A DNA stretch of 64,000 nt, taken from NCBI GenBank assembly GCA_017962445.1, contig JAGCVI010000021.1:3751-67750 (forward strand). The letters are read 5' to 3'. Positions 4,191 to 23,557 of this stretch are shown here, piece by piece. This stretch comes from Bacteroidales bacterium. GTDB taxonomy: Bacteria; Bacteroidota; Bacteroidia; Bacteroidales; P3. Each line of letters begins with the position of its first letter. Position 1 is the first letter of the stretch. Under the pieces are notes generated by a model. That model was not told the origin of the DNA, made no database searches, and saw only the letters and a list, made by a program, of their open reading frames with translations. Made by a program: the position numbers and the translations under genes.

Positions 4191-5825
4191 TTAGCAACTC
4201 AACTCGGCCAGATGCTTGCTCACCTCGCCAATCGACTCCTTCACGAAATACTTGCACGACTTCATGAAACGACCGTCTCTCTGGCTGTCAAGCAGCAGCA
4301 GGTAGCCCATGATGATGTTGCTCAGCACCTCCGTCAGCGCACGGGTGTTGTGCTCGAAACGCTCGCTCGTGGTGCCTTCCGAGGCTGCCAGCTCATACAT
4401 CTTCTTGTATTCTTCGGTAGCCTTGCGCAACGTGGCCTGGCACTGGCGCATCTCGTCGGTCATACCCTCAAAGGAGGAAGCTTTCTCGTCGTAGCTCTCA
4501 ATCTGTTTCAGGTACGCGCCGCTGGCTATGCCCTTCATGGCGGCAACAACCTGCAGCTGGCTGGTACCTTCATAAATCGAGAGGATTCTTGCATCGCGGT
4601 ACAGTCTCTCGCATGCGTATTCTTTCATGAATCCGCTGCCGCCGTGCACCTGTATGCAGTCGTAGGCGCATCTGTTGGCAAACTCGCTGGCGTTCAGCTT
4701 TACAAGCGGAGTAAGTATGTCGGCAATCCTCGATGCGGGTTTGCTGCTCGACGAAAGATCCACATAACGGGCCGTCTCGTACATCAGGCTGCGGGCACCG
4801 TCGGTGCGAGCACGCATCTGGTACAGCAAATCCTGAACGGCTACAAATTGGTCAATCGTGTGTCCGAACTGTTCGCGGCTTGCAGCGTAGGCCTCGGCCT
4901 CGCGGCAGGCGGCTTCGCACAAGCCTATCGACTGTGCTCCCACACCCAGACGTGCGCCGTTCATCAGCGACATCACGTACTTTATCAGTCCCAGCCTGCG
5001 CTCTCCAACAATCTGTGCGGGGGCGTTGTTGAACTGCAACTCGGCGGTGGGACTTCCCTTGATACCCATCTTGTTCTCGATTCTGCGTACTACCATGCCG
5101 CCGTCAGCTTTGTCAAACACAAAGTAGCTTAGTCCACGGCCGTCGTTGGTGCCCTCCTCGCTGCGTGCCAGCACAAGGTGAAGGTCGGCATCGCCATTGG
5201 TGATGAATCTCTTCACACCGTTCAGGCGCCAGCAGTTCGACTTCTCGTCCCAGGTGGCTTTCAGTCTCACCGACTGCAGGTCGCTGCCTGCGTCGGGCTC
5301 CGTAAGGTCCATCGAGCAGGTGGCTCCCTCATATATGCGTGGCAGGTATTTGTCTTTCAGCTCTTCGCTTGCAAAATGCTGTATCGTCTCGGCGCAGTCC
5401 TGCAGACCCCAAATGGTGGCGAAACCAACGTCGGCTCTTGCTATGACCTCGGCGGCCATAACCTCCACCACACGCGGAAAGTTCAGTCCGTTGTATTTGC
5501 GCTCCAAGGCCATGCCGTACAGTCCCGACTGTATCAGCGCGTCGAGGTTCTTCCTCGTGCCGGGGGCATAGTGCACACGGCCGTCAATGAGCTGTGGTCC
5601 CACATGGTCCACCTCCTCGGCGTTCGGCGCAATCACGTCTCCTGCTATGTCGCCCAGCAGCTTCATAACCATGTCGTACTGCTCCACAGCCTCCTCGGCG
5701 TTCTTCGGAGCCTCGGGGTGTGTGCCGGCCTCGGCGTAGTCTTTTTCCTTCACTGCCACCACCTGGTCCATGTCTGGATGGTGCAGGTAAAAACTAAGGT
5801 TCTCGTTATCTGTGTAAAAATTCAT
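4191..5825 (-). CDS. acyl-CoA dehydrogenase family protein (long form of about 544 aa)
   Basis: ACAD-like pattern throughout (TEPDAGSDL, RFITNG, IYEGT, QVHGGSGF). Immediately downstream of etfBA in the same orientation. Confidence 0.85.
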   Translation of the reverse strand: MNFYTDNENLSFYLHHPDMDQVVAVKEKDYAEAGTHPEAPKNAEEAVEQYDMVMKLLGDIAGDVIAPNAEEVDHVGPQLIDGRVHYAPGTRKNLDALIQSGLYGMALERKYNGLNFPRVVEVMAAEVIARADVGFATIWGLQDCAETIQHFASEELKDKYLPRIYEGATCSMDLTEPDAGSDLQSVRLKATWDEKSNCWRLNGVKRFITNGDADLHLVLARSEEGTNDGRGLSYFVFDKADGGMVVRRIENKMGIKGSPTAELQFNNAPAQIVGERRLGLIKYVMSLMNGARLGVGAQSIGLCEAACREAEAYAASREQFGHTIDQFVAVQDLLYQMRARTDGARSLMYETARYVDLSSSSKPASRIADILTPLVKLNASEFANRCAYDCIQVHGGSGFMKEYACERLYRDARILSIYEGTSQLQVVAAMKGIASGAYLKQIESYDEKASSFEGMTDEMRQCQATLRKATEEYKKMYELAASEGTTSERFEHNTRALTEVLSNIIMGYLLLLDSQRDGRFMKSCKYFVKESIGEVSKHLAELSC

Positions 5826-14133: not shown

Positions 14134-15204
14134 ATGCCCGCAAACAAAAACACAGTAACACGATACTACATTCTGGATAAGTTGTTGGCCAACCGTTACC
14201 ATCACTATTCCGTAGAGGACTTGCGTCAGCATGTCAACGAGGAGCTGAAAGAACTCGGACAGGAACCTGTGAGCCGCCGCACCATTGAACTCGACCTGCA
14301 CTATCTGGAGTATGAAGGTCCTTTCCTCGCAGAGATTGAACATTATCAGATAGATGTTCCTAGTCAGAAAAACCCCAATAAGACGGTCAAGAAGAGCTGT
14401 CACCGTTACGCAGATCCTTCGTTCTCAATCTTCAAGAAAGAATTGAAGGAGGATGAGAAGTACCTCCTCTCCGAAGCCTTGTCTTTGCTGGGACAGTTTG
14501 AGGGCCTTCCTAATTTGGATGGTCTGGAGACCCTGCGGAAGAGTCTAGACGTGAAGACCGACCGTCAGATAATCTCCTTCACCAAAAACCCGTTGGAAAA
14601 CTCGACGCTGCTTGGCGAACTCTTCACGGCTATCTCGCAGAAACAGGTTGTGGAAATCCACTATCACCGCTTTGAAGCCCCTGATGAAGAACGGCAGATT
14701 ACAGTTCATCCCTATTCGCTCAAAGAATACAACCGCCGTTGGTATCTGATGGCGACAGCCGATACAGACAAAAAAATCTTGATCCTTGCTCTTGACCGCA
14801 TTGATAGTGTTGTGCCTCTGCCTGCCAAAGGGTACGCTTCCTTTGATGGCGACATTAGCGAACGCTTCGAGGACATAATCGGGGTGACGCTTCACGAAGA
14901 CCGCCCCGTGCAGCCCATCCTCTTTTGGGTCAGTGACCATTCCAAGGACTATGTCGCCACAAAGCCCATCCACGAATCCCAGCGGCACTACAGCGGCGAG
15001 CGTGAAAAGGGACTTCGTCAGCAGTACCCGATGCTTGAAGGTGGATACTTCTTCTCTATCGAATGCGTCGAGAACTATGAGCTTATACGCGAACTCACCT
15101 CCTTTGGCGAAGACCTGATTGTGCTATCGCCAGAAGATATCCAGCAGAAGGTGATCAACAAAATAAATGGAATGCGCAACAAATATGACTTTATTTGCAA
15201 ATGA
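14134..15204 (+). CDS. HTH-WYL-WCX transcriptional regulator (BrxR/CapW-like architecture)
   Basis: N-terminal wHTH-like segment (VSRRTIELDLHYLE). WYL core reads ITVHPYSLKEYNRRWYLMA...LALDRI. C-terminal extension reads YELIRELTSFGEDLIVLSP. Confidence 0.8.
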   Translation: MPANKNTVTRYYILDKLLANRYHHYSVEDLRQHVNEELKELGQEPVSRRTIELDLHYLEYEGPFLAEIEHYQIDVPSQKNPNKTVKKSCHRYADPSFSIFKKELKEDEKYLLSEALSLLGQFEGLPNLDGLETLRKSLDVKTDRQIISFTKNPLENSTLLGELFTAISQKQVVEIHYHRFEAPDEERQITVHPYSLKEYNRRWYLMATADTDKKILILALDRIDSVVPLPAKGYASFDGDISERFEDIIGVTLHEDRPVQPILFWVSDHSKDYVATKPIHESQRHYSGEREKGLRQQYPMLEGGYFFSIECVENYELIRELTSFGEDLIVLSPEDIQQKVINKINGMRNKYDFICK

Positions 15205-15250: not shown

Positions 15251-16390
15251 ATGGACAATAAACCCACATTTATATCCCGAGACGGAATGATTGCCGACAG
15301 CAATTATGTTCAGTGGATAGCAAATATTAAATCGCGCTTTCAACAAAGTCAAATTAAAGCTGCTGTGAAGGTGAATACTTCGCTCCTGGAGTTTTACTGG
15401 AGCGTAGGACGTGACTTGGTAGCCCTTAAAGCAGAAGAGCGTTGGGGCAGCGGAATAGTTAAACAGTTTGCTTTGGATATGCGGAATGCTTTCCCTGATG
15501 CTAAAGGCTTCTCTGACACAAACGTGAAGTATATGAAGCGCTGGTATCTGTTTTATTATAAGCAAGTTGAAAAAGATCAGCAAGCTGTTGGCCTTTGGGA
15601 AGACCCTAAAGGTCGGCAAGATGCCGACCAAATCAAAGAGACAAAAAAAGGTCGGCAACTTGCCGACCAATTAGAAATGCCCGAAATATTTGGTCAAATT
15701 CCATGGTATCATCATATTCGTATAATCAGCCACTGCAAGACTCTCGACGAAGCCATGTTCTATATGAACAAGACGATAGAAGAGGGCTGGAGCCGCAGCT
15801 GGCTCGAAGACCAGATCGCTCAAAACCTATACCGCAACCAGGGCTCTGCTATTACAAACTTTGACATCGCCTTGCCTGCGCCGCAAAGCAAGTTAGCAAA
15901 AGAGATTCTGAAAAACGAATACAATCTTAGTTTTATCAATGCCGAGTGTGTGAGGCAAGAAAAAGACCTGGAAGAGGCTCTTGTCGCGAACGTCACACGT
16001 TTTCTTCTGGAACTAGGGAAGGGGTTTGCATACGTGGGCCGACAGATGGAATTGAGGATGGATGATGAAACGGCATTCTTCCCGGACTTGGTTTTCTATC
16101 ACATACCGCAAAAACGTTACGTCATTATAGAGTTGAAGGCAGTCAAGTTCGAGCCGGAGTTTGCCGGCAAGTTGAATTTCTATGTCACCGCTGCCGACAA
16201 GCTTCTTAGGGGCGACGGTGACAACGAATCGGTAGGCCTGATAATTTGCAAAACAGCAAAGAAGACTATTGTCGAGTGGTCGCTGAAAGACATTAACAAG
16301 CCGTTAGGAGTATCGACTTACCAACTTGAAGAAGTCGTTGCCCGCACTATAGCAGAACTGGAACAACAAAAAGAGAAAGCCCGCAAATAG
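15251..16390 (+). CDS. DUF1016/YhcG-family PD-(D/E)xK nuclease-like protein
   Basis: N-terminal YhcG-type pattern (LLEFYWSVGRDL...WGSGIVKQFALDM...GFSDTNVKYMKRWY). C-terminal nuclease core reads GKGFAYVGRQ...FPDLVFYH...VIIELKAVKF. Confidence 0.8.
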   Translation: MDNKPTFISRDGMIADSNYVQWIANIKSRFQQSQIKAAVKVNTSLLEFYWSVGRDLVALKAEERWGSGIVKQFALDMRNAFPDAKGFSDTNVKYMKRWYLFYYKQVEKDQQAVGLWEDPKGRQDADQIKETKKGRQLADQLEMPEIFGQIPWYHHIRIISHCKTLDEAMFYMNKTIEEGWSRSWLEDQIAQNLYRNQGSAITNFDIALPAPQSKLAKEILKNEYNLSFINAECVRQEKDLEEALVANVTRFLLELGKGFAYVGRQMELRMDDETAFFPDLVFYHIPQKRYVIIELKAVKFEPEFAGKLNFYVTAADKLLRGDGDNESVGLIICKTAKKTIVEWSLKDINKPLGVSTYQLEEVVARTIAELEQQKEKARK

Positions 16391-16437: not shown

Positions 16438-18021
16438 ATGAAAAATATGGAAAAACACAATCCTATTTTTAGTCTAAAGAATTTCCGTTCCTTTGGTGAA
16501 GAAGGTGCCGATTTTGAACTTGCACCAATTACCGTACTTACTGGATGTAATAGTGCCGGTAAAAGTTCTCTTGTGAAAGCATTGTTCCTTATGTCAATGC
16601 AAGGCAACAAACCAGGAGTGCTACCTATAAGCAACCTTCAAATATCATCTAAAGAATTAAATCTTGGAAGATTCGACAAAGTAATACACAAGAATGTAGA
16701 CGGAAAGATGATAAATCTATCATATAAAATGTGGTCGAATTATCTTCAAGAAACAGTAACGGTAAGCCGCTTCTTTGCCGAAAACAAGAACGATTTGCTT
16801 AACAATGGCGACCTTAAAATGTACACTATCGAGAAAGAAGACGGAACACTAATTTACCAGTATTGTCCAAAAGCTATTAACTATTCAGATCCATATATAG
16901 AAGAAAAGTATGAAGCAATCCAAAGCAATTTCACACGATTCTCCAAATCGTGCAGATACGTGGAATTAAAGCAAAAGCAAGCCATTTTAAGCCACAAAGA
17001 TTCGCTGAATAATGAAATGAAAGCCACCAAAGAAAGGATGGAAAAGGAACTGCTGGATTTTTCAAGTGAAATAGATATTATTAGGGTGGATGAGTATCCA
17101 GTCGAGTTGCTTAAAAAATTTGTAAATAGACATAATGAGGATGCAATAGTTGACTTGTATAAAGATTTATCCAAGGAGGAGAAAGAAAAGCTGGACTTCC
17201 AAGAATATTTTCAGCATGTTTGTAATGAAGTCATTGCACCATGGTTTATTAATGATATTGTATACGTGAATTCTTCTTCGGCTCAAATAGGCAGGGTTTA
17301 TGATATAAGTGACAGCAACAAGTTCTGCAAAGCTCTACACTCTTTAAATAACAAAACCGTAACATTCAAAGATAGTCTTCCTGTTGAAAGCTATTCAACA
17401 ACACACACGCCGCTCTCATTTGTCAATAAATGGATAAAGGCTTTCGGTATCGGTGATAGAATTGAGGTGGAAGGTACTATCGAAGGGTTAGGAGTCCTTA
17501 TCTATTTGATTAGGGGTAAAGAGAGAACATTACTTGCTGATGAAGGATATGGAATAACACAGTTAATATCGCTACTCATGCAAATTGATAATTCTATTCC
17601 TTTATATTTAGAAGGTAACCCTACTTTCAATCTAGAAAAATTTGAATATGATTACAGTAATTTAGATATGACATATCCGCATTATGTGATTTGTGTCGAG
17701 GAACCCGAGATACATTTACATCCTAAATACCAATCCTTGCTGGCAGACATGTTCTTGGAAGCTTACCAGAAATATAACATTCACTTCATTATCGAGACAC
17801 ATAGCGAGTATTTAATACGCAAACTCCAGGTAATGGTGGCCGATAAAGATAATACCATTACTTCCAATGAAGTTTCTCTTAATTATGTTGAGAAGGATGG
17901 GAATGGCGTGTCTACCAATCGCAAAATCGAGATATTGGAAGATGGCCGATTAAGTGAACCTTTTGGCCCTGGATTCTTTGATGAATCAAAATCCTTAGTC
18001 ATGCAAATGCTGAAATTCTAA
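16438..18021 (+). CDS. ABC/AAA_15-like P-loop ATPase with DUF3696-type C-terminus
   Basis: Walker A VLTGCNSAGKSS, signature-like LADEGYGITQ, Walker B VICVEEPEIHLHPKYQ, H-loop IIETHSEYLI, and C-terminal GPGFFDE. A long helical insert separates the two ATPase lobes. Confidence 0.8.
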   Translation: MKNMEKHNPIFSLKNFRSFGEEGADFELAPITVLTGCNSAGKSSLVKALFLMSMQGNKPGVLPISNLQISSKELNLGRFDKVIHKNVDGKMINLSYKMWSNYLQETVTVSRFFAENKNDLLNNGDLKMYTIEKEDGTLIYQYCPKAINYSDPYIEEKYEAIQSNFTRFSKSCRYVELKQKQAILSHKDSLNNEMKATKERMEKELLDFSSEIDIIRVDEYPVELLKKFVNRHNEDAIVDLYKDLSKEEKEKLDFQEYFQHVCNEVIAPWFINDIVYVNSSSAQIGRVYDISDSNKFCKALHSLNNKTVTFKDSLPVESYSTTHTPLSFVNKWIKAFGIGDRIEVEGTIEGLGVLIYLIRGKERTLLADEGYGITQLISLLMQIDNSIPLYLEGNPTFNLEKFEYDYSNLDMTYPHYVICVEEPEIHLHPKYQSLLADMFLEAYQKYNIHFIIETHSEYLIRKLQVMVADKDNTITSNEVSLNYVEKDGNGVSTNRKIEILEDGRLSEPFGPGFFDESKSLVMQMLKF

Positions 18022-18033
18022 AAACACATTATT

Positions 18034-19083
18034 ATGAAAAAACGGCTAATATACCTTCAATCTGGCTTTTGGAAAAAGATTAGGAAATGCGATAGTGTTG
18101 AAGACAAACGCATGTTTTGGGATTTATATGGAGCTTTGGAATGTTGTAATATTAAGGCTGACTTTACGTCAAGCGAATGGGCAGAAGATAAAGATGATTT
18201 ACTGTATTACTTGCTACAAAGCAGTTCTGATGGGAATGGGACGAAGATTGAATTTTGTGCCACTGAAAATATACAGGAAGCATTAGACTACACGAAAGAA
18301 CAGTCAATAGAGAATTTATGCGCTGCATTCCTTCTGGACGAAGAAACAAGGGTGTGTCTAGACCGAAGTAAAGAATTGGGAGTTTTGTGTTTAAACTCGG
18401 ATATGATAAAAGAGCATAAATTTGTTCGGGGTGATGCTGTTATGTATGAGAAAGGTGAGATGTTTGATAGATTTGACAAATGTAAAACAGCCCTTGCTTC
18501 TCCGTGCAATGCTATAATCTTAATTGATCCATATATACTGTTTAATAAATGGAGCGTTGAATTAAATTTAATTCCTTTGATGGATAAATGCTTACCGCCT
18601 GATCCCAAGAGGCAAGATGACCAGAAAATTGATTTTCATTTATCTATTCTTTCACAAACAAATCAATGTTTTATTGGCAAGTATAAAGATATACTTCGGT
18701 ATGAAAAGATTTATGACTATGTAAAAGAAGAAATCAGAAAGATTAGACCTAATATGAAATTAAAGTTTACTCTGTATCACACTAATACAACGGGTAATGG
18801 AGATGGGGATTTTCATAGCAGACATCTTGTAACAAATTGTATGCTTGTAAATTCCGAGGATGGTTTCGATTTTTTCGAAAATAAAAAGAATGAGTACACG
18901 GGGAAATGGGAAACGGTAAGTGGTAAACATGCTAGACTTGAGTTTCTATATCCTACACTACTTGATAATCGTCGTTTAGATGCTGATAATTATTATCGCT
19001 GGATAACACTGTCAGCAAACAATTGTGTCGATAATTCTTTGTGCTGGGGTGATAAAGAAAATCGATTGTTTGAATTAGTTTAA
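18034..19083 (+). CDS. hypothetical protein with MIT_C-like (PLD-fold) C-terminal region
   Basis: Starts 12 nt after the ATPase stop. LIDPYIL ... FHSRHLVTNCMLVNSEDGFDFF resembles, from memory, the MITD1 C-terminal domain motifs EDPYIR ... IHDREIRFNNGW..GRGLDYF. Not verified by profile search. Confidence 0.5.
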   Translation: MKKRLIYLQSGFWKKIRKCDSVEDKRMFWDLYGALECCNIKADFTSSEWAEDKDDLLYYLLQSSSDGNGTKIEFCATENIQEALDYTKEQSIENLCAAFLLDEETRVCLDRSKELGVLCLNSDMIKEHKFVRGDAVMYEKGEMFDRFDKCKTALASPCNAIILIDPYILFNKWSVELNLIPLMDKCLPPDPKRQDDQKIDFHLSILSQTNQCFIGKYKDILRYEKIYDYVKEEIRKIRPNMKLKFTLYHTNTTGNGDGDFHSRHLVTNCMLVNSEDGFDFFENKKNEYTGKWETVSGKHARLEFLYPTLLDNRRLDADNYYRWITLSANNCVDNSLCWGDKENRLFELV

Positions 19084-19087
19084 TAGC

Positions 19088-19981
19088 ATGGCGTACATTA
19101 CCAACGCAAATTTCCGAAGAATAACAAGAGAATTCGACGTTCCCAAAGACAAGAATTTCTCGTTTAACGATATCGTTATTTGGGAATCGCCCAATGGTAA
19201 AGTTGTTGACAAGAAAAATCCATATATCTTCAGTTGGTGGGAAGTCAATGAGTTGCTTACCTTTAAGGAATTCTGCAAGGATACAAAGATGGCTGTTGAG
19301 CACTTCTATAGAAAAATAGAGAAACCACTAGACAGCCTCAAGTACGTTGATCCAGAACGATGCCCTGCTTACCATTGTGATAGGAACTGCGAGGCTATGC
19401 ATTCATCTCTTCAACGAATAGAAATACCAGAAGAAATAAGAGAACAAGGAAAAGATAAAGTACAGGAATTCCGAAAATGGTGGAAAAGTAACGAGAGTAT
19501 TCGAGAAGAAAAGCCCGATGCTTTTGTGGCCAAACTTAATTTAGCGTTTGGTACAAAGCTTCATGGTTATGAGGTTGAGGACAAAAGCAACTCTGGGGTT
19601 CATGACATGACAGACAATCGTTCTATCAAAGAGATAAATCAAGAAATACGCACGAAGTTTAATGATTTGTTTAAATGGGCAAAAGATGAAGAAAGAAGGA
19701 AAAAGATTTTTGTGAAATTCAAATTCCTATCTTTTTTGGGGGATAGTGATTATCCAATACTAATCGACACTGGCAATTTCACTGAAAGTGAGATTAAAAC
19801 CGTTTTGAGAGATGTGCATTCAAGGAAAAAAGAAATTGTTGAAGAACTCAAAAAGTTATATCAGAGAAGGTACATCCCCGATTTAAACTTTCAGACCTCA
19901 TTGCTAGAGAACCTCGGTTTTGTTCCTTGCTACACCTGTATGGGTGGCATTGCTGAAGAGCATGTTTTTGATGAGGAATGA
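19088..19981 (+). CDS. hypothetical Cys-rich protein, third gene of the ATPase operon
   Basis: Starts 4 nt after the preceding stop. Contains CPAYHCDRNCEAMH and C-terminal CYTC clusters. No family recognised. Confidence 0.5.
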   Translation: MAYITNANFRRITREFDVPKDKNFSFNDIVIWESPNGKVVDKKNPYIFSWWEVNELLTFKEFCKDTKMAVEHFYRKIEKPLDSLKYVDPERCPAYHCDRNCEAMHSSLQRIEIPEEIREQGKDKVQEFRKWWKSNESIREEKPDAFVAKLNLAFGTKLHGYEVEDKSNSGVHDMTDNRSIKEINQEIRTKFNDLFKWAKDEERRKKIFVKFKFLSFLGDSDYPILIDTGNFTESEIKTVLRDVHSRKKEIVEELKKLYQRRYIPDLNFQTSLLENLGFVPCYTCMGGIAEEHVFDEE

Positions 19982-20245: not shown

Positions 20246-20253
20246 TAACTTTG
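20246..20253 (+). promoter_or_regulatory. Bacteroidota-type -7 promoter box (TAnnTTTG) for the retron-like transcript
   Basis: TAACTTTG lies about 30-40 nt upstream of the a1-like arm of the ncRNA. Confidence 0.5.
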
Positions 20254-20283
20254 CAAACGAAATTGCACGCTAAAGAGTTCTTT

Positions 20284-20588
20284 GAAACAGTTGTCACCCA
20301 TTAGTCTGAATTAGAAACTTCCGGCTGTTTACCAGTCGGTCGCCGTCTGCTGCAATCGGCAGATTCCGGGCGGTGGACTTCCGGTCCATGCAGGCCCGCA
20401 TAGCAATGTCGCTTCACCGGCGGTCCGCGTCTACAACCGTGGCGCGGCGTCGTGCGGCCTTAGTGACGAGGGATAGCCAGGCAAGAGCCGAGTTGTCCCC
20501 CGGCATCATCCCGCGCTCCACAACTCGGCTCTTGCCTGGGTTCAGGGGACATATCTGAAGTAATGGGGGACAGGGTGGCAGCTGTTTT
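20284..20588 (+). ncRNA. retron msr-msd-like non-coding RNA
   Basis: GC-rich non-coding stretch immediately 5' of a retron-type RT. Has a perfect 20-bp stem (20477-20496 / 20520-20539, 23-nt loop). Flanking a1/a2-type pairing is either 20291-20303 with 20561-20573 or 20284-20299 with 20573-20588. CACCCATTAG at 20295-20304 mirrors the Ec86 CACCCTTAG branch-G context. Confidence 0.6.
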
Positions 20589-20642
20589 GGGAACCGGCGG
20601 ATGGATGCAGGGAGTCGGAATAGTTCAAATGTATAATTCAAA

Positions 20643-21785
20643 ATGAAGAAAGTGGCTGAAATAACTGACAGGAGAGCGGAAGTCAAGGCTGCGGAGACGC
20701 GAATCCATGACCTGTGGAGTTGCCTTCACACTAAGAGGGACCTCCTCAGGCTGGTGAACGTTGCGCTTGAAGGTCTGTATGGCATGGACGCGAGAACGGT
20801 CACGATGAGGCAGTTGAACCTATCCGCATACTCCTCGCTTAATGCGCACAGGTACCGCACTTTCCAAATTCCTAAGAAGAGGAAAGGCGAGTTCCGCACT
20901 ATCGACGCGCCTGACCCCACGCTGAAATACATACAGCAGGGGCTGAACTTTGTGCTGCAGACCGTCCACACTCCCCATCCCGCCGCAATGGGCTTTGTTC
21001 CTCACCGTTCAACGGTGACAGGTGCAAAAGTGCATCTGGGCCAGAGGTTTGTGTATAATATCGACCTAAAGGACTTCTTCCACACCGTCACGTCGGGGCG
21101 GCTATACAAGCGTCTGACTTTGGAGCCGTTCTGTCTGGACGGCGAGGTGGCAGGCCTAATCACTGACCTCTGCTGTTACATGGGTCCCGACGGAAGAAAC
21201 GTGCTGCCTATGGGCGCTCCCACGTCGCCTGCGGTGACAAACATAATCTGCGAGCGTATGGACGGAAAACTATCACGGCTGGCTAGGGTATACGGCTTGA
21301 AATACTCACGCTACGCCGACGACATCACCTTCAGCGGAATGGCGGATGTCTTCGCCGAGGACGGACGTTTCATCATGTCGATGCGCAACATCATCGTGAA
21401 TGAGGAAGGCTTCACCATCAATCCCGAAAAGACTAGGCTCTGCCACTGGGGTATGCGCCAGGAGGTCACTGGCATCACGGTGAACAGCAGGGAGAATGTC
21501 CCGCGGAAGTACGTAAAGCAGTTGCGGACAATGATTCACAACTGGGAGATGGACGGACACGACAAGGCTCAGGCTGTCTTCGAGAAGTACTATATGGAGC
21601 AGAACTACACGCACAATCCCGATGTGAAGCACCATATCGAGAACGTTGTCGCAGGGAAACTTCTGTACCTCAAAATGGTGAAGGGCGAGACTGACCCGAC
21701 ATACAGGGCCCTCGACCGCAGGTTCAGAGCCCTGACGGAAACAGGCGGGCGGGATACGCAAGGAACTGGAAAAAACAGATTATAA
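20643..21785 (+). CDS. retron-type reverse transcriptase
   Basis: RT motifs 1-7: FQIPKKRKGEFRTIDAP, NIDLKDFF, LPMGAPTSPAVTN, YSRYADDITFSG and INPEKT. Also has the retron-typical RQEVTGITVN (VTG) segment. Confidence 0.85.
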   Translation: MKKVAEITDRRAEVKAAETRIHDLWSCLHTKRDLLRLVNVALEGLYGMDARTVTMRQLNLSAYSSLNAHRYRTFQIPKKRKGEFRTIDAPDPTLKYIQQGLNFVLQTVHTPHPAAMGFVPHRSTVTGAKVHLGQRFVYNIDLKDFFHTVTSGRLYKRLTLEPFCLDGEVAGLITDLCCYMGPDGRNVLPMGAPTSPAVTNIICERMDGKLSRLARVYGLKYSRYADDITFSGMADVFAEDGRFIMSMRNIIVNEEGFTINPEKTRLCHWGMRQEVTGITVNSRENVPRKYVKQLRTMIHNWEMDGHDKAQAVFEKYYMEQNYTHNPDVKHHIENVVAGKLLYLKMVKGETDPTYRALDRRFRALTETGGRDTQGTGKNRL

Positions 21786-21806
21786 AGAATAATACAGTAT
21801 AACACA

Positions 21807-22712
21807 ATGAAACTGAATAAGCTTTTATACCATATCAGGGAGAAGGAGGACTGCATCCCTACAGGAATACCGAGCCTCGACGAACTGACTGGCGGCCTGC
21901 CTGTGGGCGGCATAACAGCCCTTGCTGCACGCCCATCGATGGGCAAGACTCCCTTTGCGATGACAGTGGTGCGAAACGCCGGAATCATTGGCAGGATTCC
22001 CACAGCGGTCCTTTCTTTTGAGGACGACAGTGAATATGTCGCCAAGCGCCTTCTTGCTACCCAGATAGGATGGGACGCGGTGAAATCGATGGAGCACGAT
22101 CCTGTCAGGCTCACAGCTGAGCAGAAGGAGAAAATCGGGAAACTGGAGCAGATAGGCTTCATATCGCAGAATATTGAAGACTCTAGTTTCCTCGAAAAGA
22201 TGAAGGAAGCCCCGGTGTGGATTGAACACGATGCCTATGTGACGATGGACGAGCTGGTGAGCAAGATTGAACGCCTGAAACGCGAGAACAACATCAGCTT
22301 GCTGGTCATTGACAACTTCGGGCATATCGCTATGGACGGCTATGCTTCCGACAAGGAACATAAGATGCAGAAACTGCTACAAACCGCAGAGCGGCTTAAG
22401 ATTGCCGTGCTTGTGACGGCAAGGGTGCTGCGGAGTGTAGAGACTCGCGGCGGAACAAAAAAGCCGATGCTTTCTGATATTGAGAATGAGGCATTTCTCG
22501 AAAACTACGCATCGCTGATAGTGTTCCTATACCGCCCGGAATACTACTGCATCTTTGAGGACGAATACGGTTCTACACTTAACAAGGCCTATGCCATCGT
22601 TGCCCGCAATAAGCGCGGCGACATTGGCGAGGTGAGCCTTGATTTTGTAAAAAAGGCTAGGTTCGCCGACTGGACCCCGATTAATAAAACATTTAATAAG
22701 ATAATAATATGA
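21807..22712 (+). CDS. DnaB C-terminal-domain-like (RecA-fold) P-loop ATPase lacking the DnaB N-terminal domain
   Basis: IPTGIPSLDELTGGL...AARPSMGKTPFAM (Walker A) and LLVIDNFGHI (Walker B) align by eye with E. coli DnaB GVPTGFTDLD...AARPSMGKTTFAM...LIMIDYLQL. Only about 20 aa precede the ATPase core. Starts 21 nt after the RT stop. Confidence 0.75.
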   Translation: MKLNKLLYHIREKEDCIPTGIPSLDELTGGLPVGGITALAARPSMGKTPFAMTVVRNAGIIGRIPTAVLSFEDDSEYVAKRLLATQIGWDAVKSMEHDPVRLTAEQKEKIGKLEQIGFISQNIEDSSFLEKMKEAPVWIEHDAYVTMDELVSKIERLKRENNISLLVIDNFGHIAMDGYASDKEHKMQKLLQTAERLKIAVLVTARVLRSVETRGGTKKPMLSDIENEAFLENYASLIVFLYRPEYYCIFEDEYGSTLNKAYAIVARNKRGDIGEVSLDFVKKARFADWTPINKTFNKIII

Positions 22713-23311
22713 TACCAGGTAATTCTGAATTATTAAAATGCCCGTTTTGCGGCGAAGAAAAGGAAGTGCTGACATTGCTTTCAGGGAACACTTGCAATGG
22801 CCAGCAATGGTCTGACATGAAAAGCATATATCCTATGTTGCCAAAGGTTTCTCCCATTCAGAAATGCCCTTCCTGCGGCAAATACTATTTCACTAAGGAT
22901 GCGGAGAAGCGACAGGGTAAGGCCTACAGCCTTGAGAAAGGCGACCTTACATACACGCAGCTGAAAGAAGCGGCAGTCCAGTTCGGTGACGAAATATCCA
23001 AAGAAGACCGATTTGTCCTTGACTTGCTTCTGCTGTGGGCGTACAACGACCTCTACAATAGGGAAGACGTGAATATAACGGATGCACCCGCCGAGGAGAA
23101 AGCGTATATTGATACTGTCCTTGACAGGCTGGTAGAAAGGGAGGATATTGACAATATTATGAAGGCTGAATTCTACAGGGAAATGGGCCTTTTCGTCTAT
23201 GTGCCTCTGCTAATCAGTCAGCTTAATATTGAAGACCCATTCCTCAGAGATGTCGCCAAGCGTATCCACGACTACGCTAAGTGCAAGAAAAGCATAGCAT
23301 TTAAAATATAA
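22709..23311 (+). CDS. hypothetical zinc-ribbon protein
   Basis: ATGA start/stop overlap with the ATPase gene. N-terminal CPFC...CPSC four-Cys ribbon followed by a helical region. No family recognised. Confidence 0.55.
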   Translation: MIPGNSELLKCPFCGEEKEVLTLLSGNTCNGQQWSDMKSIYPMLPKVSPIQKCPSCGKYYFTKDAEKRQGKAYSLEKGDLTYTQLKEAAVQFGDEISKEDRFVLDLLLLWAYNDLYNREDVNITDAPAEEKAYIDTVLDRLVEREDIDNIMKAEFYREMGLFVYVPLLISQLNIEDPFLRDVAKRIHDYAKCKKSIAFKI

Positions 23312-23557
23312 AGTGTAATTGTTAGAAGGTGATAGATTCTGACGCAATCTCATTGGTCGGATTCTTGTCGGACTTTTTTTAGAAAAGACATTGTATATAA
23401 GGCTTAATCATCTACCTCTATAACAGATGAGCCATTATAAAACATCGTGCGTAATAAATTTCATACAATGGCGAGTACACTTCATAGATCGCATATCTGA
23501 AACATGAAACAATACGCTATTTGTTTGTAATTTTGCAAAAAAGAATCAATTGGAAAT

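Follow-up and report, generated by a model that had tools for sequence, protein, structure and literature searches.

A probable retron partnered with a DnaB C-terminal-domain protein in a defense island of a Bacteroidales bacterium

Organization of the locus

A 64,000-nucleotide (nt) stretch of DNA from a Bacteroidales bacterium (assembly GCA_017962445.1, contig JAGCVI010000021.1, positions 3,751-67,750 of the forward strand), here called the window and used for all position numbers below unless another locus is named, contains a compact module in which a promoter motif, a structured noncoding RNA (ncRNA), a reverse transcriptase (RT) gene and a gene encoding only the C-terminal domain of a DnaB-like helicase (DnaB_C) follow one another (Table 1). 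Retrons are bacterial modules of an RT and its structured RNA that normally serve in defense against phages. Window positions 20246-22712 can with high confidence be regarded as a genuine retron that has the DnaB_C protein as its partner. A first-pass annotation, made from the sequence, had described four elements here: a TAnnTTTG promoter followed by a structured noncoding stretch of roughly 300 nt, an RT with retron hallmarks, a protein consisting essentially of the DnaB C-terminal ATPase domain, and a CPxC...CPxC zinc-ribbon open reading frame (ORF) overlapping it by ATGA. All four are present as described. Its interpretation, in which the ATPase and the zinc-ribbon protein form the effector pair of an undescribed or poorly described retron subtype, is partly supported: the retron and its DnaB partner are upheld and the zinc-ribbon partner is not, while the architecture has been described by computation only. 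The minimal unit comprises the promoter, the ~300-nt RNA, the RT and DnaB_C, and leaves out the zinc-ribbon gene.

Table 1. Features of the retron and of its surroundings in the window, in order of position within each group.
Feature	Position	Strand	Basis and remarks
Bacteroidetes-type -7 promoter motif TAACTTTG (TAnnTTTG)	20246-20253	+	Sequence read; consensus match only; 31 nt upstream of a1
Retron ncRNA (msr-msd), ~303 nt, closed by the a1/a2 stem	20285-20587	+	Inverted repeat, minimum free energy, covariation
a1 / a2 arms	20285-20299 / 20573-20587	+	Long-range inverted repeat
Motif GTCTGAATTAG, candidate RT-recognition and branching-G region	20304-20314	+	Just 3' of a1; conserved in alignment
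Two msr stem-loops	20321-20339 (covarying) and 20345-20364 (GTCTGCTG-CAAT-CGGCAGAT, nearly invariant)	+	RNAalifold helices 3-5
Perfect 20-bp hairpin with 23-nt loop, presumed msd (msDNA template) stem	20477-20496 with 20520-20539	+	Inverted repeat
Motif TATCTGAAGTAAT	20552-20564	+	Just 5' of a2; near-direct repeat of the 5' motif
Retron RT, 380 aa, stand-alone	20643-21785	+	PADLOC, NCBIfam and Pfam profiles
DnaB C-terminal-domain-only protein, 301 aa (partial linker helix and RecA-fold domain)	21807-22712	+	Pfam, alignment, AlphaFold
Zinc-ribbon and helical protein, 200 aa	22709-23311	+	ORF; CPFC...CPSC; starts inside the DnaB_C stop (ATGA)
WYL/WCX-domain regulator-like gene	14134-15204	+	Domain; 5.4 kb upstream of the retron
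DUF1016/YhcG PDDEXK nuclease, PDC-S02	15251-16390	+	PADLOC E 5e-126; between the WYL gene and the ATPase block
Three-gene block, first gene an AAA_15 + DUF3696 ATPase	16438-19981	+	PADLOC NsnB 6e-43, PDC-M55A 1e-33

Promoter motif and noncoding RNA

On the forward strand between 19900 and 23700 the TAnnTTTG motif occurs only twice, at 20246 and at 23528, the latter preceding the next gene. The region that follows the first occurrence, 20285-20587, is noncoding and has a G+C content of 60%, compared with 49% for the window. Its minimum free energy of -147.5 kcal/mol corresponds to z = -4.8 against dinucleotide shuffles, none of the 100 shuffles being equally stable, and 55 nt separate the end of a2 (20587) from the ATG of the RT gene (20643). 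A search of the RNA against Rfam returned no match, even at E values up to 1.

Related loci were gathered through homologues of the DnaB_C or the zinc-ribbon protein, which yielded 10 further retron loci (L007, L010, L090, L092, L094, L095, L096, L178, L179 and L180), with L096 representing the same lineage as L095. Comparison of these loci reveals a common layout upstream of the RT, with an inverted repeat closing 210-310 nt and a long perfect hairpin near its 3' side; the a1/a2 stem and the internal long hairpin are present in 11 of 11 related retron loci, and TAnnTTTG lies 34-118 nt upstream of a1 in seven of eight. Three observations support the predicted fold. First, in an alignment of 10 loci, 8 of the 12 base pairs of the a1/a2 helix are changed on both sides. 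Second, the RNAalifold consensus places standard pairs in 94.9% of cells, as opposed to 26-48% when the partners are slid by one to three columns. Third, 13 of 34 consensus pairs show compensatory change, a count that none of 500 shuffles reached. RNAalifold also recovers both msr hairpins, with compensatory changes in the first (20321-20339) and 98.8% pairing in the second (20345-20364), which is nearly invariant across the 10-sequence alignment as GTCTGCYG-NNAT-CGGCAGAC.

Two short motifs flank this structured region on the inner side of the a1/a2 stem. The 5' motif, GTCTGAATTAG, varies among the 10 aligned loci only at its first position (G or A), the other 10 of 11 being identical throughout, and retron architecture elsewhere suggests that this region may hold the branch site. 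The CTGAAGTAAT core of the 3' motif, TATCTGAAGTAAT, is invariant in 10 of 10 aligned loci. The two motifs probably come together as a conserved internal loop at the base of this stem. They also nearly repeat each other directly (TCTGAATTA, TCTGAAGTA). Every related locus carries its own long perfect hairpin at the position equivalent to the presumed msd stem, with lineage-specific arms such as CCAGGCAAGAGCCGAGTTGT, CCAGGATTGAGGCGAGTTGCG and GCCGTCGATAAGC. Because these hairpins fell out of register across lineages in the MAFFT alignment and could not be aligned, msd conservation is given per locus and not as covariation. As read from sequence and predicted folding, the RNA has a classical msr-msd arrangement.

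Reverse transcriptase

Among PADLOC profiles the RT best matches RT-Protease_XI (9e-99), RT-TIR_XII (2.5e-90) and RT-Toprim_I-C (4e-83), in each case over only the RT part of these fusion profiles. NCBIfam retron models match at 1e-54 to 1e-77, versus 1.5e-18 for the group II intron RT and 3e-9 for Drt3a. Pfam identifies RVT_1 alone, with no fused effector, and the best 120 RT homologues likewise all contain RVT_1 only. The protein carries YADD at residue 224, RQEVTGITVN at 272 and, within it, the VTG of region Y at 275; region X reads GAKVH in the window RT and its closest relatives, and NAxxH in other lineages. Because retron profiles outscore the group II intron and defense-associated RT profiles, the RT is placed with the retron clade of types XI, XII and I-C, as a member with no fused effector, the placement resting on profile scores. 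The first-pass annotation would have been refuted by an RT of the group II intron, diversity-generating retroelement or abortive infection clades, a placement that the profile scores do not favor; these scores and the covarying a1/a2 stem together bear out its description of a retron-type ncRNA and RT module.

A DnaB C-terminal-domain protein as the conserved partner

The protein encoded 21 nt downstream of the RT ORF matches Pfam DnaB_C at an E value of 1.6e-41 over profile positions 2-252 of 255, and the DnaB N-terminal domain (PF00772) was not found in it by Pfam. It aligns to residues 176-435 of G. stearothermophilus (Bst) DnaB and carries an insertion relative to DnaB at about residues 85-135. 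In a structure search, which the first-pass annotation had proposed for this and the zinc-ribbon protein, the top Protein Data Bank (PDB) matches of the AlphaFold model (predicted local distance difference test score, pLDDT, 86) are all DnaB (4esv, E 3e-20, template modeling score, TM, 0.75), and solved DnaB structures share 25-28% identity with the protein at TM 0.70-0.76. NCBIfam DnaB models score it at 69-132 bits against curated cut-offs of 385-898. Lacking PF00772, lying far below these cut-offs and belonging to a family whose catalytic residues are degenerate (see below), the protein does not qualify as a replicative helicase. The family of short DnaB_C proteins comprises ~55 clusters of 290-364 amino acids (aa) at 38-98% identity, with full-length DnaB next at ~35%.

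An RT gene lies upstream of DnaB_C on the same strand in 10 of 11 lineages with readable contigs, directly adjacent in seven and with one extra ORF between the two in three, and this order is kept across DnaB_C lineages that are 42-69% identical. Pairwise identities of RT and DnaB_C are correlated (r = 0.86, 36 pairs), so that DnaB_C behaves as the specifically associated, co-evolving partner protein expected of a retron. In L090 nothing else accompanies the RT-DnaB_C pair, which has a GmrSD gene on one side and convergent housekeeping genes on the other; ncRNA, RT and DnaB_C thus make up the minimal system. By the measure of synteny and sequence divergence, this trio is the conserved core and DnaB_C its conserved, co-evolving partner.

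The sole short DnaB_C member examined with no RT nearby is that of L177 (4619-5873). It is preceded by a TerB-domain gene, genes of unknown type and a ~230-nt intergenic stretch with nested inverted repeats (4666-4891). A scan of genome contigs with the DnaB_C alignment was dominated by genuine DnaB genes, which share the pattern YRPEYY, and L010 was the only true family member retrieved. In a scan of 2.9 million viral contigs, the best 80 matches were all phage DnaB at no more than 32% identity and included no close DnaB_C homologue, a result suggestive of the absence of this family from phages.

Full-length dnaB genes are found within a few kb of several related retrons or zinc-ribbon homologues (L010 10838-12424, L179 1870-3498, L007 9099-9557 and L099 3135-4754). 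The L179 gene is immediately upstream of the RT, the L007 ORF encodes a DnaB N-terminal domain, and the L099 gene is near a zinc-ribbon homologue. This proximity may be coincidental, may stem from a common hotspot beside dnaB, or may hint at how the DnaB_C partner arose.

Catalytic residues of the DnaB_C family

The window protein has the Walker A sequence RPSMGKT and the Walker B sequence LLVIDNF. Four residues central to ATP hydrolysis in replicative DnaB are the P-loop Lys (Bst K216), the catalytic Glu (Vc E259), the Walker B Asp (Vc D340) and the arginine finger (Bst R420), and the R420A substitution removes both ATPase and helicase activity (PMC3236778; bioRxiv 10.1101/2024.11.09.622779). 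The first three are retained in the window protein as K47, E72 and D169; the position of the arginine finger is occupied by K269, followed by R270. Residue E226, which is Glu throughout the window subclade, aligns with Bst R381 in the RESG loop, which we take to contact single-stranded DNA (ssDNA) in DnaB structure 4ESV.

Among 40 aligned family members, all four residues occur together in only five. The P-loop Lys is replaced by Thr in seven, the catalytic Glu is replaced in 16, mainly by hydrophobic residues, and Arg occupies the finger position in 18, Lys in eight and Asp in seven. In contrast, little or no variation is seen in the first four residues, MKLN (the protein starts MKLNKLL), or in the P-loop backbone. 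Because only five of the 40 members keep all four catalytic residues, the DnaB_C partner is unlikely to be a helicase motor, and the label "ATPase" needs caution given the degeneracy across the family. Since most members have lost at least one ATPase or ssDNA-contact residue, the protein is more likely a non-translocating ring or poison subunit than a helicase. This residue pattern suggests that oligomerization and the binding of nucleotide or DNA matter to the family and processive helicase activity does not, and the protein would more plausibly act as a ring-shaped binder of multicopy single-stranded DNA (msDNA), a decoy or a replication poison.

Relationship to described systems

A full-text search of the literature identified one relevant paper, the Toro preprint of 14 May 2026, which by computation only describes 29 TXI_noncan_h loci in Bacillota and Bacteroidota (bioRxiv 10.64898/2026.05.14.725207). 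TXI_noncan_h is presented there as a phylogenetically monophyletic RT radiation, set apart from the WYL-associated TXI_C2like (bioRxiv 10.64898/2026.05.14.725207). The window locus fits TXI_noncan_h feature by feature, as judged from the described architecture. Both have a protease-less type XI-like RT and a DnaB_C-only protein that is encoded separately, usually at position +1; both have Bacteroidota hosts and a defense-island context; and the a1/a2-flanked ncRNA ends 22-104 bp upstream of the RT in TXI_noncan_h, a range that includes the 55 nt of the window. There are also differences. The consensus RNA of the preprint is a compact double stem-loop of 23 bp, whereas the a1/a2 stem of the window encloses ~300 nt with a long msd hairpin. 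TXI_noncan_h is described as lacking WYL genes, whereas here WYL genes lie upstream in L094, L178 and the window, at slightly larger distances. The preprint is also silent on zinc-ribbon proteins, on an extra ORF of 248-310 aa described below, and on the catalytic degeneracy of DnaB_C. PADLOC-DB 2.0 contains no model for the DnaB_C partner, whose only match there is mad8 at 6e-4. Of the first-pass wording, "undescribed" is therefore superseded by the description of TXI_noncan_h, while "poorly described" is apt for a lineage known by computation and missing from PADLOC-DB 2.0.

Canonical type XI retrons were defined by the fusion of a trypsin-like protease to a clade 8 RT; no ncRNA was recognizable, and DnaB goes unmentioned (Mestre et al. 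2020, PMC7736814). Although RT-Protease_XI is the top PADLOC profile for the window RT, the match is confined to the RT region, stopping at position 324 of the 510-position profile, and RVT_1 is the sole Pfam domain; in place of a fused protease the window has a separate DnaB_C partner. Likewise, no msr-msd RNA was recognized for type XI in 2020, whereas one is detectable in the window. Types I-A, I-B and I-C, in which an OLD-family ABC ATPase is combined with HNH or Toprim, share the tripartite logic of ncRNA, RT and a partner with an NTPase fold, and the window RT also scores well on the RT-Toprim_I-C profiles. However, the type I partner is an ABC ATPase with a nuclease, whereas the window partner is a RecA-fold DnaB domain with no nuclease domain and with poorly conserved ATPase residues. 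Replicative DnaB itself has in common with the window protein the C-terminal RecA-fold domain with P-loop, Walker B and H4-type motifs; unlike the window protein, it has the N-terminal domain (PF00772), and its ssDNA-loop Arg and arginine finger are replaced in the window by Glu and Lys.

A proposed mechanism

The best overall explanation, which we favor with somewhat better than even confidence, is a two-protein retron in which a type XI-like protease-less RT is accompanied by an N-terminally truncated DnaB partner that is restrained by the RT-msDNA complex. If the retron paradigm applies, the RT would bind the folded RNA, start synthesis at the 2'-OH of a G within or close to the conserved GUCUGAAUUAG element, and reverse-transcribe the msd portion with its 20-bp hairpin to yield msDNA. 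The resulting RT-msDNA complex would hold the DnaB_C protein in check until a phage infection changed the msDNA or the complex and so freed it. The DnaB_C protein, which appears to retain the RecA domain that forms rings and some of the linker helix but not the primase-binding N-terminal collar, would then clamp ssDNA or replication forks, or else act on the replicative helicase or its loader by titration or capping, so that replication stops and the infection is aborted. This specific replication-poison step is a tentative suggestion, less probable than not.

Several points weigh against the two-protein, restrained-partner explanation. First, the preprint calls the function of TXI_noncan_h unknown and untested (bioRxiv 10.64898/2026.05.14.725207), and the literature full-text search returned no msDNA, phage-phenotype or toxicity data for the DnaB_C retron lineage. 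Everything in the mechanism beyond the term "retron" is thus extrapolated from other retron types. Second, the window DnaB_C could still hydrolyze ATP, since its Walker A Lys, catalytic Glu and Walker B Asp are all in place and its finger position reads Lys-Arg. Third, L177, with no RT nearby, indicates that a DnaB_C protein can exist outside a retron. Fourth, no toxic domain is evident in the protein; therefore, the real effector could lie elsewhere.

The main alternative, which seems rather improbable, is that DnaB_C is a sensor or decoy mimicking the C-terminal tier of the host helicase, which phage loaders, hijackers or inhibitors would bind, thereby switching on the RT-msDNA or another effector. 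Such a role would suit a protein that keeps the loader-binding C-terminal tier while its catalytic residues are dispensable: DnaC, lambda P and DciA bind the DnaB C-terminal domain in 6kza, 9oa1 and 8a3v, which are among the top-ranking PDB entries. Phage helicases are also named as triggers of another retron type, going by the title of a reference (Garcia-Rodriguez et al. 2025), and some lineages encode beside the RT an extra conserved protein of 248-310 aa that is a candidate effector. However, the window, L090, L092 and L180 contain no other conserved candidate effector protein that such a sensor could control.

The 248-310 aa proteins form a family with members in L094 (5247-5993), L010 (5241-5990), L178 (4145-5014) and L261 (6489-7421), for which no Pfam or PADLOC match was found. 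In three lineages their genes separate the RT from DnaB_C; in L261, a sister locus without DnaB_C, the gene comes immediately after the RT. The family could represent an ancestral accessory.

The zinc-ribbon gene

The first-pass annotation had combined the DnaB_C ATPase with the zinc-ribbon protein as a joint effector pair, which would make this a three-protein retron. Arguing for such a pairing, the zinc-ribbon gene is probably co-transcribed, given its 4-nt ATGA overlap with DnaB_C and the lack of a promoter motif between the ncRNA promoter and 23528, and a 60%-identical gene follows the RT-DnaB_C pair in L007-L009. However, the window and L007-L009 are the only cases, and in L007 a DnaJ-domain gene intervenes between DnaB_C and the zinc-ribbon gene. 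The gene is not present beside RT-DnaB_C in 8 of 10 lineages (L090, L092, L094, L010, L095/96, L178, L179 and L180). Conversely, none of 80 metagenomic loci with zinc-ribbon homologues (34-69% identity) has an adjacent RT-DnaB_C pair, some of these loci including 2-5 kb of upstream sequence. The zinc-ribbon family is also much the larger of the two, with 289 hits (~290 clusters) compared with ~55 short DnaB_C clusters, and its members occur in unrelated arrays, adjoining genes as varied as ADP-ribosylglycohydrolase, NUDIX, DUF218, ABC transporter and WYL genes or host dnaB or dnaG. A joint effector pair is accordingly improbable. Of the first-pass proposal, the DnaB_C half stands, on its synteny with the RT in 10 of 11 lineages and the correlated divergence of the two proteins, and the zinc-ribbon half falls, with synteny limited to the window and L007. 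This distribution marks the zinc-ribbon gene as a probable passenger, or at most as an add-on of particular lineages, and not as a conserved retron component.

For the zinc-ribbon protein, the matches in Pfam, PADLOC, NCBIfam and PHROGs were all generic zinc ribbons below threshold. Its structural model (pLDDT 95) combines a beta zinc ribbon at the N terminus with a helical TPR-like domain at the C terminus, and a Foldseek search of this model against the PDB yielded no match better than E 0.14. The family is found in gut and rumen Bacteroidales and Muribaculaceae and has invariant CPxC...CPxCGKYY, WSD and AYND motifs. Its members are often located in arrays of small unknown genes with an ADP-ribosylglycohydrolase.

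Genomic context

The retron is located in a defense island with housekeeping genes on both sides. Directly upstream is the three-gene ATPase block, which is AT-rich (35-38% G+C) and tightly spaced; its two other proteins (349 and 297 aa) have no family match, and the block is probably a separate, uncharacterized defense system. Further upstream, the WYL protein is 83% identical to the one encoded two genes upstream of the L094 retron and is strongly similar (E 1e-154) to the WYL protein upstream of the sister RT of L261. It may regulate the island or the retron. WYL genes lie two to three genes upstream of the retron in both L094 and L178, and GmrSD, Fic and WYL genes adjoin related retrons. 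What separates the WYL gene from the retron differs among loci: in L094 this slot encodes a 320-aa protein, in L010 it holds a 994-aa ORF, and in the window it is filled by four genes.

Homologues of the 297-aa protein of the block, u297 (19088-19981), immediately precede the retron ncRNA in L094 (2485-3447, E 1.8e-63) and L178 (1368-2270, E 2.6e-13), in each case after a WYL gene. As a candidate core component of the retron, u297 was rejected: it is not found in other lineages, the corresponding slot of L010, which is close to L094, holds the 994-aa ORF, and the G+C content of u297, 38%, fits the AT-rich block and differs from that of the retron. It may be a facultative retron-associated gene or hotspot cargo.

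The loci L094, L010 and L178 combine WYL, DnaB_C and an ORF of 248-289 aa that they have in common with the WYL-type sister locus L261. Because WYL genes and this shared ORF occur together with DnaB_C, the boundary between the DnaB_C-type TXI_noncan_h and the WYL-associated TXI_C2like may be less sharp than stated.

The surroundings also bear on a last alternative, that RT, ncRNA and DnaB_C together serve a mobile element in its replication or maintenance, in which DnaB_C works as a helicase and has no role in immunity: although the L179 pair directly follows a full-length DnaB gene near a resolvase gene, and dnaB genes lie a few kb from the retrons of L010 and L007, this is very improbable, as an integrase or replication-initiator gene is missing beside the pair both in the window and at most loci, the neighbors are defense genes, the primase-coupling N-terminal domain is missing and the motor residues are degenerate, the best 80 viral-contig matches include no close homologue, and the RT groups with retron RTs.

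Implications

The present analysis adds four elements to the published description of TXI_noncan_h: an RNA of ~300 nt with a long msd hairpin, the systematic degeneracy of DnaB_C, the setting aside of the zinc-ribbon gene, and the WYL and 248-310 aa ORFs that link DnaB_C-type and WYL-type loci. The definition of a minimal unit narrows what must be cloned and mutated, and the well-defined a1/a2 stem and long msd hairpin may be of interest for retron-based tools for DNA production.

In this analysis the DnaB_C retron lineage is confined to gut and rumen Bacteroidales-type genomes. Combining the above, it is possible, though we hold this full picture only tentatively, that the DnaB_C partner is a catalytically decayed, collar-less DnaB ring for which msDNA serves as a pseudo-substrate, and which on phage attack is freed to jam or cap the helicase, its loader or the forks, with the WYL and 248-310 aa proteins as ancestral, facultative parts connecting both lineages of the preprint. 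The retron effectors characterized to date comprise nucleases, proteases, membrane proteins and enzymes that target NAD or nucleotides. A partner derived from a replicative helicase that apparently does not need its motor residues would, if the reading is correct, represent a different retron route, one of interfering with or surveying the replication-fork machinery, and its effector would act by molecular mimicry of the replisome and not as an enzymatic toxin.

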